In this document: piece after piece, positions 41,927-56,809 of the stretch
Layout of the letters: every line of letters starts with the position of its first letter
How positions within the stretch are numbered: the stretch's first letter is position 1
NCBI GenBank assembly: GCA_019058245.1
Contig: JAHPZJ010000025.1
Span: 1-64,000 of the forward strand
DNA length: 64,000 nucleotides
DNA from: Promethearchaeota archaeon
GTDB lineage: Archaea; Asgardarchaeota; Lokiarchaeia; Sigyniarchaeales; SOKP01
Reading direction: 5' to 3'
Notes under the pieces: generated by a model
The model's input: only the letters and a program-made list of their open reading frames with translations
What the model was told of the DNA's origin: nothing
Database searches by the model: none
Program-made: the position numbers and the translations under genes

Positions 41927-42030
41927 CGGGCTATAGGGGAATTGAACCCCCGACCTTTCTTTTTAAGGGAGAACTTCCCATAAATGTCAGGTTAAAAGCC
42001 TGCTGCGCTACCTGCCTGCGCCAATAGCCC
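41927..42030 (-). tRNA. tRNA-Lys(UUU) with a 30-nt non-canonical intron (~44/45; about 41956-41985)
   Basis: Acceptor GGGCTAT/ATAGCCC-G, D-stem GCGC/GCGC, anticodon arm CAGG-CTTTTAA-CCTG, T-arm GGGGG-TTCAATT-CCCCT; removing 30 nt gives 74 nt. Confidence 0.88.
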
Positions 42031-43249: not shown

Positions 43250-43350
43250 GCCTCTGTGGCTTAGTGGTATAGCAACATTTCATATCATTTCGATAAAAAG
43301 GTTAAAGATTCGTAATCTGTAGATCGGGGGTTCAATTCCCCCCAGAGGCT
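43250..43350 (+). tRNA. tRNA-Thr(CGU) with a 29-nt intron in the anticodon stem (28/29 or 29/30; about 43277-43305)
   Basis: Acceptor GCCTCTG/CAGAGGC-U; splicing restores ACAGA-TTCGTAA-TCTGT; T-arm GGGGG-TTCAATT-CCCCC; mature length 72 nt. Confidence 0.92.
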
Positions 43351-44734: not shown

Positions 44735-44953
44735 ATTTATTTACCCGATATAAAGAATAGCAAAGATGAAGAAGAATCTGTAAAATCTTTCATAGATTTC
44801 AATAAAAAGGATAAAATTTTATATGATAATCTATATATCGGAGTCTTTAAAATAGTTATCAAATTTCCAATAGAAAATAAAGACAAATTTCTAACTCAAA
44901 TTAGAATTGAAAGATTTTCATTAATGAATGATATTTTTTTAACCTCCTATTAA
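44735..44953 (+). CDS. Possible unannotated 72-aa ORF with ATT start
   Basis: Frame open from 44690 to 44953; GAGGT 7 nt before ATT at 44735; TTTAAATA box at ~44672. Confidence 0.4.
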   Translation: MYLPDIKNSKDEEESVKSFIDFNKKDKILYDNLYIGVFKIVIKFPIENKDKFLTQIRIERFSLMNDIFLTSY

Positions 44954-45191
44954 TATTATCATTTTTTCCTTGTTTGAATTATTTCTTAATTTCAACTTGT
45001 ATAATATTCCAGCTGAAAAACAAAAACTTACATATCATTATATCATTATATATTAAATTGATATAATTAGAAAGATTGAATGATACACTCAGGATTTAAA
45101 TGATAGTAAAATTTTAAAATAGTAAAAATTTCTATTTATCAATTAACCTTTCTAATAGAATCATTATAAGAGGGAAATATTAAAGGAACAA

Positions 45192-45398
45192 GCAGGGGTA
45201 GCCAAGATTCTAGAATATATCATCTAGAACTCTACTAGATTGCCTCTATTAGACTAGAATGGAAATTTGGTCTACGGTGCTAGAATATTACGTGATTATA
45301 CGTCTATGGTGAGACTGAGGCTCTAGTGACATAGGTCTTCGTGGGTTCGAAAATCGACGTAAGTTATACGAATTCGATAGAAAATCCCACCTCCTGCA
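45192..45398 (+). tRNA. tRNA-Leu(GAG) with three non-canonical introns: 15/16 (45207-45265), 30/31 (45284-45313), 59/60 (45352-45384)
   Basis: Acceptor GCAGGGG/CTCCTGC-A; removing 59+30+33 nt gives an 85-nt type II cloverleaf with CTAGA-CTGAGGC-TCTAG, variable arm GAC-ATAG-GTC and GTGGG-TTCGAAT-CCCAC; each junction folds as a relaxed BHB. Confidence 0.9.
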
Positions 45399-54831: not shown

Positions 54832-55269
54832 ATGAAAAAATTTGGGTATAGATTCCTTGATCACACTGCTGATGTTTCAGTCGAAAGTTGGGGTACAAGT
54901 TTAGAAGAAGCTTTTGAACAAACTGCATATAGCTTAATGGAAACAATAACTCCAAATTTAAAATTAATATCTCCTGTTAATCACAAAACCATTAAAATTG
55001 AAGCAGAGGATAAAGAAGCTCTACTTTTTGATTTTCTATCAGAATTTCTCTATATATTTGATGTAGAACAGTTAGTTTTTAATGATATAAAAGTCCACAA
55101 AATAGAAAAAGGTCAAAAAAAATTTCAATTAGTCGCAAAAATTAAAGGAGAAATGTTTGATAAAAAAAAACATGAAATAGGTTGTGAGGTAAAGGCTATC
55201 ACTTATTCTTTTATGAATATAGAAGAAAAAAAGGATCAAGTTAAAATTAATATTGTTTTTGATATCTAA
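54832..55269 (+). CDS. Archease
   Basis: FLDHTADV, LEEAF, EVKAITY, VFDI. Confidence 0.96.
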   Translation: MKKFGYRFLDHTADVSVESWGTSLEEAFEQTAYSLMETITPNLKLISPVNHKTIKIEAEDKEALLFDFLSEFLYIFDVEQLVFNDIKVHKIEKGQKKFQLVAKIKGEMFDKKKHEIGCEVKAITYSFMNIEEKKDQVKINIVFDI

Positions 55270-55336: not shown

Positions 55337-56809
55337 TTAACCTTTCACTACACCAATAGGAACAAATCTCACTACTTTTTCAACAATTCCAAGATCATGG
55401 CTAACTTGAACAACTTGATCTATATCCTTATAAGCACCAGGAGCCTCTTCAGCAATAACTTTCATCGCAGCAGCTCGAATTATGATACCTTTTTTGCTTA
55501 AATCCTCTTTAACACGTTCTCCCCAGTACTTCTTTGTTGCTTTTGATCTTGACATTACCCTTCCTGAACCATGAGCTGTCGAACCAAAAGAAAGATCCAT
55601 GGCCTTTGGTTTACCAACACATAAATAAGAAGCAGAACCCATAGTTCCTGGAATTAAAGCTGGCTGTCCTATTGATTTATAATCATTTGGCAAAGCTGGA
55701 TGTTCAGGAGGAAAAGCTCTTGTTGCACCTTTTCTATGAACATTCAATTTCATTTTCTTACCATTTACTTCATGCTCCTCTATTTTTAATATATTATGGC
55801 AAACTCCATAAATTAAATGCATATCTAAATCATCAAAATCCTTTTTAAATGTATTTTGAAAGGATTCTCTTAACCAGTGAGTAATAAGTTGACGATTTGT
55901 GAACCCAAAATTTGCAGCACAACCCATTTGTTTCAAATAATTCTGGGCTTCTGGTGTGTCAGCCGGTACACAAGCTAACTCTCTATCTGGTACCTTAATA
56001 TCATATTTCTTCATCGCTTGTTCGATATTGCGTAATGAATCAGTACACACTTGATGTCCAAGAGCTCTACTCCCTGTATGTACCATAACTGTAATTTGAT
56101 CCTTTCTATTTATACCTAAAGCTTTTGCAATAGTCTCATTGTAAATTTTATCAACTTTCTGAATTTCCAAAAAATGATTCCCACTCCCTAACGATCCTAG
56201 TTGTTTAATAGCTCGCTGTTTTGCTTTTTGGGAAACTAAACTCGCATCAGCATCTTTTAAACATCCATTCTCCTCTAAATGTGTAAGATCCTCTTCAATA
56301 GCATAGTCATTTTCTATTGCCCAATTCACACCATTGTTTAGAACATCATCTAAATCTGAAAAACTTATATTTAGCTTACCTTTTGAACCTAATCCTGAAG
56401 GGATATTGTTAAAAATACTATCCAAGAGAGTTGGCAGCACACCCTTAACATCGCTAAGGGTTAAATTCGATCGAAGCAGACGAACCCCACAATTTATATC
56501 ATATCCTACTCCACCTGGAGAAATCATCCCACTCTCTGCATCTGTCCCTGCAACACCTCCAATACAAAATCCATATCCCTGGTGAGCATCCGAAAGAGCA
56601 ATCGCATGCTTCTCTATCCCTGGTAAACACGCTACATTGCAAATTTGATCTATTGTACGATCTAATCGAATCTTTTCTAATATATATTCATTCGCATAAA
56701 TCTTCACCGGAACCCTCATCTCAAATTTCTCAATTATCCCTTTAGTCCTTGCCATCAACGTCTTTGGAGGAATCTCGTAGATATTGTCTGCTATTTTATT
56801 TACATTCAT
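55337..56809 (-). CDS. rtcB: RNA-splicing ligase RtcB
   Basis: DAHQGYGF, GYDINCGVR, GSGNHF, HRKGATR, HGSGR, YKD; no intein. Confidence 0.97.
   Translation of the reverse strand: MNVNKIADNIYEIPPKTLMARTKGIIEKFEMRVPVKIYANEYILEKIRLDRTIDQICNVACLPGIEKHAIALSDAHQGYGFCIGGVAGTDAESGMISPGGVGYDINCGVRLLRSNLTLSDVKGVLPTLLDSIFNNIPSGLGSKGKLNISFSDLDDVLNNGVNWAIENDYAIEEDLTHLEENGCLKDADASLVSQKAKQRAIKQLGSLGSGNHFLEIQKVDKIYNETIAKALGINRKDQITVMVHTGSRALGHQVCTDSLRNIEQAMKKYDIKVPDRELACVPADTPEAQNYLKQMGCAANFGFTNRQLITHWLRESFQNTFKKDFDDLDMHLIYGVCHNILKIEEHEVNGKKMKLNVHRKGATRAFPPEHPALPNDYKSIGQPALIPGTMGSASYLCVGKPKAMDLSFGSTAHGSGRVMSRSKATKKYWGERVKEDLSKKGIIIRAAAMKVIAEEAPGAYKDIDQVVQVSHDLGIVEKVVRFVPIGVVKG

Follow-up and report, generated by a model that had tools for sequence, protein, structure and literature searches.

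The window analysed here comprises the first 64,000 nucleotides of contig JAHPZJ010000025.1 from a Promethearchaeota archaeon (assembly GCA_019058245.1). Gene content marks the host as an Asgard archaeon of Loki type, and a homologue of the nuclease described below is labelled Promethearchaeota. The window carries a tRNA-Leu(GAG) gene broken into four exons by three inserts, which comparison with insert-free orthologues places at positions 15/16 (59 nt), 30/31 (30 nt) and 59/60 (33 nt) (Table 1). Removal of all three in silico yields an 85-nt product that ARAGORN calls as tRNA-Leu(gag), with excision of the 15/16 insert restoring a standard tRNA that matches the insert-free orthologues. The unspliced gene escaped detection by both ARAGORN and Rfam, and a relaxed ARAGORN run over the genome returned noise. 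A single Leu(GAG) gene was found in the host genome, which is 76% complete. The genes for the RtcB ligase and archease lie about 10 kb from the tRNA gene, and the genome codes for two EndA paralogues, which, judged by eye, differ in that one has the catalytic His and the other lacks it. This pairing is consistent with a splicing endonuclease that is probably of the (alpha-beta)2 type. With two EndA proteins, RtcB and archease, the host possesses the endonuclease and ligase that BHB introns require.

Table 1. Coordinates of the tRNA-Leu(GAG) gene, its inserts and associated features in the window
Feature	Position	Strand	Basis or remarks
tRNA-Leu(GAG) gene	45192-45398	+	ARAGORN on the in silico spliced product; insert-free orthologues at the same locus
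tRNA-Leu(GAG) exons	45192-45206, 45266-45283, 45314-45351, 45385-45398	+	mature tRNA of 85 nt
Upstream block, probably the tRNA promoter	45024-45191	+	common to carriers of the 59-nt insert, not to insert-free relatives
Insert at 15/16	45207-45265	+	59 nt; defined against insert-free orthologues
Predicted outer intron, 5' part	45207-45229	+	holds hairpin A (45208-45214/45223-45229), the predicted flanking stem after the first splice
Predicted outer intron, 3' part	45260-45265	+	central-helix strand TGGA and 3' bulge AA
Predicted inner intron	45230-45259	+	30 nt, HBh' type; central helix CTAG 45224-45227/CTAG 45254-45257
Predicted inner intron, bulges and stem	45228-45230 and 45258-45260; 45231-45239/45245-45253		bulges AAC and AAT, each cut after AA; stem of 9 pairs
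Inner motif of the first-pass annotation	45214-45253	+	helix 45214-45217/45247-45250; present here, rejected as a conserved signal
Intron at 30/31	45284-45313	+	30 nt; helix 4/4 including G-U pairs, 3-nt bulges
Intron at 59/60	45352-45384	+	33 nt; relaxed motif, central pairs 3/4; missing from several homologues
Archease gene (ligase cofactor)	54832-55269	+	Pfam PF01951, E 1e-43
RtcB tRNA-splicing ligase gene	55337-56809	-	Pfam PF01139, E 9.7e-170

Across the Leu(GAG) orthologues (L001-L084), inserts occur at 14/15, 15/16, about 21/22, 30/31, the variable arm and 59/60 in many combinations, a pattern which indicates that intron turnover is fast within a single genus. The 30/31 intron is 30 nt long in 40 of 42 homologues. 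In the present gene, this intron and the one at 59/60 resemble each other beyond shuffled sequences (0/2000), which suggests copying inside the gene; the 14/15 and 30/31 introns of G006-type relatives are likewise mutually similar. Apart from one T-loop insert of 43 nt, the other inserts of the gene family are nearly all 28-35 nt, so the first-pass annotation was right to remark that the 15/16 insert is about twice the size of the other introns. Two further tRNA genes of the window each contain a non-canonical insert of about 30 nt: a Lys-UUU gene (41927-42030, minus strand) and one with a CGU anticodon (43250-43350, plus strand) that ARAGORN wrongly labels Ile. Outside the window, a 204-nt tRNA gene (G000 C14:85043-85246, minus strand) appears by eye to hold four inserts, in the D-loop, anticodon loop (about 44 nt), variable loop and T-loop, and reads as having the anticodon UAU, which is rare in archaea.

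Within the genus, 11 of 52 Leu(GAG) genes carry the 59-nt insert (one of them partly masked); it is also present on one short contig assigned to another genus and in three other assemblies. The complete homologous copies number 14, all of 59-61 nt, and the alignment-based statistics used 11. The length variation (+1, +2) is confined to the loop of the inner intron described below, while the outer intron is 29 nt in 11/11. The contig from the other genus may be misbinned: its locus (L316, on the 1893 bp contig G081:C501) combines an allele almost the same as the carrier alleles of G008 and G021 with an upstream region unlike theirs, pointing to either misbinning or whole-gene transfer.

We conclude that the 15/16 insert is real and that it is probably a tRNA twintron with coordinates that differ from those of the first-pass annotation. 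The predicted inner intron would lie wholly inside the outer one, with 23 nt of the latter before it and 6 nt after it. On the comparative evidence from these homologues, we assign a probability of about two in three to the reading of the insert as two BHB introns removed in two steps. The inner intron features a 4-bp central helix, two 3-nt bulges on opposite strands and a flanking helix. The central helix is formed completely (4/4) in 13 of the 14 homologues, and the single exception retains 3/4 pairs, with a mismatch adjoining the 3' bulge, as in the outer motif. At the third base of the 5' bulge the homologues vary freely, and the AA of the 3' bulge is able to pair with an upstream T, or with TT where TT precedes the helix. 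The 9-pair stem is paired in 87% of cells, with two pairs altered on both sides (C-G to A-U; A-U versus C-G), a thin covariation signal given that this count is reached by 74 of 500 shuffles. This site is the sole one that combines a 4/4 helix with at least 7 of the 9 flanking pairs throughout the 11 aligned homologues, which occurred in 0/5000 column shuffles, a figure not to be read as a probability, since the criterion was set after the motif had been seen and the homologues are related.

The outer intron has one 29-nt layout throughout the copies, consisting in order of A, a hairpin of 7 bp (hairpin A), TGGA and AA. The TGGA strand forms three of four pairs with the exon stretch GCCA (45201-45204) in 11/11, with G10 facing an A (as in this gene) or a G. 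The outer motif hence has no canonical 4-bp central helix and belongs to the relaxed class, as do the simple introns that relatives have at 15/16; simple introns of 28-33 nt with the same geometry are found at 15/16 of Leu(GAG) genes in other genera and lineages. Hairpin A has 7/7 pairs in 13 of the 14 homologues, with 98.7% of cells paired and a loop about 20 times more variable than its arms. In silico, removal of the inner intron rebuilds the 29-nt intron with its 7-bp stem in 11/11. Under constrained folding, the outer motif costs 2.4-6.2 kcal/mol after the first splice compared to 6.1-12.6 kcal/mol in one step, and is cheaper in all 11. The 30-nt inner motif is also cheaper than the one-step motif in 10/11, by small margins in two. 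The insert contains two copies of CTAGAA, either of which can pair with the 5' arm, and these differ in their conservation: the first (TCTAGAA, 45223-45229) has 0.14 minority cells per column, the second 0.67 and the loops 2.2-2.9. The first copy is one of the best-conserved segments, in hosts with only 75-94% identity in the neighbouring gene.

These features suggest the following course of splicing. The endonuclease would first cut at 45229/45230 and 45259/45260, using a motif made wholly of intron sequence, whereupon RtcB would ligate the ends and 30 nt would be released. Hairpin A would then directly abut TGGA, creating an ordinary relaxed 15/16 motif, and the second pair of cuts, at 45206/45207 and 45265/45266, would free the remaining 29 nt, leaving the D-loop restored. 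The first CTAGAA copy would thereby be used twice, initially in the inner helix and then in the outer stem. On this route the order of splicing would be fixed, because the two motifs share the nucleotides 45224-45229 and T45260. The division of 59 nt into 30 + 29 is in keeping with the sizes of the other inserts in the family. Together with the introns at 30/31 and 59/60, the nested arrangement would amount to four splicing events on one tRNA, an idea which had been put forward from the sequence of this gene and which the twintron reading supports.

Folding energies in this genome fail to separate the candidate motifs, and hence a comparative test is needed. The minimum-energy fold contains hairpin A, and both RNAalifold and single-sequence folding give a ground state of two hairpins in which neither splice motif is formed, with no discrimination between the models. 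Formation of the inner motif costs 1.7-8.2 kcal/mol across homologues and competes with hairpin A. The principal rival is that the insert is a single 59-nt intron excised in one step, with the stem 45208-45213/45254-45259 stacked on the GCCA/TGGA helix and the internal hairpins being passengers from local duplication of a palindromic unit. Such removal is possible because the first CTAGAA copy can be substituted by the second; the stem is intact (6/6) in 11 of 14 homologues, the energy of this form is near that of the nested forms in this genome and lower in L003, the inner and outer parts are weakly similar to each other (matched by 64/2000 shuffles), and the 29-nt form was not found in relatives. 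Nevertheless, the stem is broken in three homologues (L077, L087 and L495), and the remaining introns of the gene are about 30 nt. Above all, this rival leaves unexplained why the first TCTAGAA copy, which would block it, is better conserved than the second copy, which it requires. Two steps are favoured because the first copy, idle in the one-step route and competing with it, is highly conserved, and we regard removal in a single step as unlikely.

The first-pass annotation had itself posited an intron within an intron, with a second splice-like motif that would release a 33-nt inner intron (45220-45252) from the loop of a 26-nt one. All the letters that it named are present, namely TTCTAG (45208-45213)/CTAGAA (45254-45259), AATA (45214-45217)/TATT (45247-45250), AGA (45251-45253) and TCTAG (45223-45227)/CTAGA (45235-45239). 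The idea of nesting is supported, but the site and sizes are not (30 + 29 rather than 33 + 26): the inner intron would sit at the junction of the 3' arm of the outer stem with the central-helix strand instead of in a loop. The helices of the earlier motif do exist in the sequence, and in this genome that motif is formally of the hBH type with a formation cost comparable to that of the 30-nt motif (3.9 versus 4.3 kcal/mol, the latter thus being no cheaper here). As a splice signal, however, it does no better than chance. Nine inner sites of the canonical class occur in this insert by itself, at least one such site appears in 98.5% of column shuffles, and the proposed motif ranks 12th of 1128 cut pairs. 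Its AATA/TATT helix is complete in only 5 of 14 homologues and reduced to 2/4 in L008, with 82% of cells paired and zero two-sided changes, substitutions disrupting pairing rather than restoring it. The motif is also energetically dearer than the 30-nt one in 10/11, 26 nt falls outside the usual sizes, and the 26-nt form that was to be sought in relatives was found in none of the 161 genomes of the class. We therefore consider the 33 + 26 division very unlikely. A further parse, in which a 44-nt piece (45216-45259) leaves first via CTAG at 45210-45213 with a 15-nt mini-intron left behind, has the formal canonical (hBH) pattern in each of the 11 aligned homologues. Yet its outer helix has only two pairs, both U-G, the AA taken as the 3' bulge is base-paired to TT at 45208-45209 in a continuous stem, a site of the same class is present in all 11 in 5% of shuffles, and sizes of 44 and 15 nt are unusual, making it highly improbable. 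We give the least credence of all to the insert being retained, with the gene either dead or used unspliced: this is the only Leu(GAG) gene found in the 76%-complete genome, the exons are intact and conserved in 14 carriers, and a second intact copy is absent where checked.

If the twintron arose by insertion into a pre-existing intron, an uninterrupted outer intron might persist in relatives. Pattern searches of the genus, family and order, and BLAST against 161 genomes of the class, recovered neither a 26-nt nor a 29-nt version. A metagenome scan likewise gave neither, yielding one new carrier only, and in a GTDB-wide scan dominated by other archaea they were not among the matches listed; two scans of viral sequences had nothing relevant among the matches listed. 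Simple introns unrelated to this one do occur at the 15/16 site. With the uninterrupted 29-nt intron not found in these searches, a two-step origin is not seen directly. The rest of the host genome yielded no donor of either the inner or the outer intron, and the genus none of the inner stem.

In the tree of the adjacent roadblock-GTPase gene, the carriers occupy scattered positions, and several have well-supported insert-free sisters. A single carrier clade is rejected (p-AU 1.4e-5) and at least five changes are needed, a tree which by itself does not distinguish gain from loss. The carriers nevertheless have more in common than the insert: they share the exon marks G6 and A9 and, except for the G081 contig, an upstream block of 100-260 bp that is absent from non-carriers. 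Unlike this block, which in L495 reaches within about 25 bp of the start of a nuclease gene, the spacer on the GTPase side tracks the host. G023 still has, 466 bp upstream of an intact carrier gene, its native promoter together with the former intron-free 5' half as far as the anticodon loop. An old 5' part also lies at a contig end in G027, where a strain mixture is another possible explanation; such fragments were found only in these two genomes. The shared marks, the block and the G023 remnant point to transfer. An integrase-type element was considered as the vehicle and rejected, there being no integrase in the spacers and the old 5' fragment being limited to G023 and G027. Within the window, the cassette spacer contains a broken small ORF (44757-44960), intact as a 67-aa frame in G070 (L077) and unrelated to the nuclease.

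In 7 of 11 carriers, the tRNA gene is adjoined by truncated pieces of the nuclease gene in divergent orientation; such remnants occur within 1.5 kb of 0/41 insert-free loci. The gene is deleted in this window and intact in one other carrier (GCA_964515085.1), where it codes for a protein of 338 aa (P0001). Members of its family have two HTH-like domains, a Cys/His zinc-finger-like motif and a conserved D, E-x-D-G-x-x-H, D signature, with D262, E280, D282, H286 and D307 nearly invariant. There was no Pfam match over the cut-off, and Foldseek and a sequence search of the PDB gave no placement. In structural comparison, the C-terminal domain matched Vsr at rank 1 (Z 7.4, rmsd 3.1, 102 aligned) and I-Bth0305I at rank 3 (Z 7.1, rmsd 2.8, 85 aligned), both being weak matches with Z under 8. 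A Vsr-like domain behind HTH repeats, with conserved acidic residues and a His, is the arrangement of the EDxHD/Vsr group. A feature search groups P0001 with DUF723/DUF4379 proteins, which are common in phages. Three homologues (56-57% identity) are likewise found upstream of Leu(GAG) genes in divergent orientation, and these genes differ from one another in their 15/16 introns (30, 33 and 59 nt); more distant homologues do not adjoin tRNAs. The simplest reading is that P0001 is a putative free-standing homing nuclease with the intron-free Leu(GAG) gene as its candidate target.

Two relatives deserve mention in this connection. L521 (GCA_004524515.1, between 2541 and 3001, minus strand) is a Leu(GAG) gene with the G6/A9 marks and a simple 30-nt intron at 15/16, and has an intact 584-aa nuclease homologue (P0002) upstream. 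In L496 (G092:C214, minus strand from locus position 360), which lies next to a P0001 homologue, the 15/16 site holds another 59-nt insert, unrelated to the one described here. Its sequence is similar to the 33-nt G093 intron (L497) extended by about 26 nt, so that it may be another compound intron, but a convincing inner BHB was not found in it.

On these grounds, we moderately favour a scenario in which the new 5' exon, double intron and promoter entered several species by recombination, beside a gene for a nuclease that probably cuts the intron-free allele. The Vsr/EDxHD-like enzyme would cleave that allele, carry the protected 5' half along and then decay. The full combination of claims is more tentative and, taken together, rather less probable than its opposite: that the BHB twintron is obligately spliced inside-out, that it came from a 30-nt mini-intron landing at a palindromic CTAG in an older intron, where a 6-bp direct repeat alone builds the motif, and that it moved between Asgard species as a unit by means of a free-standing EDxHD-type homing endonuclease targeting the D-arm of intron-free tRNA-Leu(GAG).

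Introns within introns that are removed inside-out are familiar from group II/III and organellar twintrons, which are composed of long ribozyme-type introns; the nesting proposed here is alike, with a 59-nt pair acted upon by a protein endonuclease and a ligase. In Crenarchaeota/Thermoproteales, pre-tRNAs with several BHB introns are known to lose them in a set, "nested" order (Sugahara 2007 and Tocchini-Valentini 2009, as cited in PMC3978253 and PMC3728597). The present case resembles these pre-tRNAs in that the last motif can form only after another intron leaves, with the same enzymes and an ordered course. Here, the predicted inner intron is enclosed, together with its entire motif, by intron sequence, with no exon base between the two introns. 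The crenarchaeal introns are said to be mostly neighbours with exon pieces between, though a strict intron-in-intron may exist among them. A text search of the literature for intron-within-intron wording together with tRNA found no archaeal case, a result that does not establish novelty. In Asgard tRNAs, up to five intervening sequences per gene have been reported (bioRxiv 10.64898/2026.10.13.758758), so that four splicing events would not be exceptional. As in the published Asgard genomes, several short non-canonical introns occur per gene, many in the D-arm and missed by standard tools, alongside two EndA paralogues. That census scores one run of extra sequence as one insertion, and the word "nested" is absent from both papers on these introns. 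The census also reports no general arrival route and no mobile-element enrichment (bioRxiv 10.64898/2026.10.13.758758), whereas this locus has a candidate carrier.

Collaborative or trans homing by free-standing endonucleases has precedent in phages (PMC2988022), as does the EDxHD family typified by I-Bth0305I (PMC3239194), whose helix-turn-helix repeats followed by a Vsr-like domain are matched in P0001. The present locus shares with such systems a nuclease gene outside the intron, patchy spread, apparently co-converted flanks beside the nuclease gene, and decay after fixation. Unlike the phage group I introns, however, it concerns a cellular archaeal tRNA gene with BHB mini-introns and a candidate nuclease. 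In the tRNA-Thr(GGU) of Caldiarchaeum subterraneum, intron gain through a mobile element, with a recombinase and integration, has been proposed (PMC3293823). There, as in G023, a new intron-bearing 5' part replaces the old one, with the old fragment lying upstream as a direct repeat. In contrast to that case, the neighbouring gene here is nuclease-like, an integrase was not found and the cargo is a double intron.

If two-step splicing holds, mini-introns can enter pure intron sequence, where their motif would be free of exon constraint, and Asgard intron counts in which each insert is taken as a single intron would be underestimates. Being short, the 59-nt element lends itself to direct tests of ordered splicing by Asgard EndA. 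The cassette, in turn, bears on how intron DNA enters tRNA genes, a question left by the Asgard census (bioRxiv 10.64898/2026.10.13.758758), by naming a candidate enzyme, P0001, which is intact in GCA_964515085.1, as well as a candidate target.
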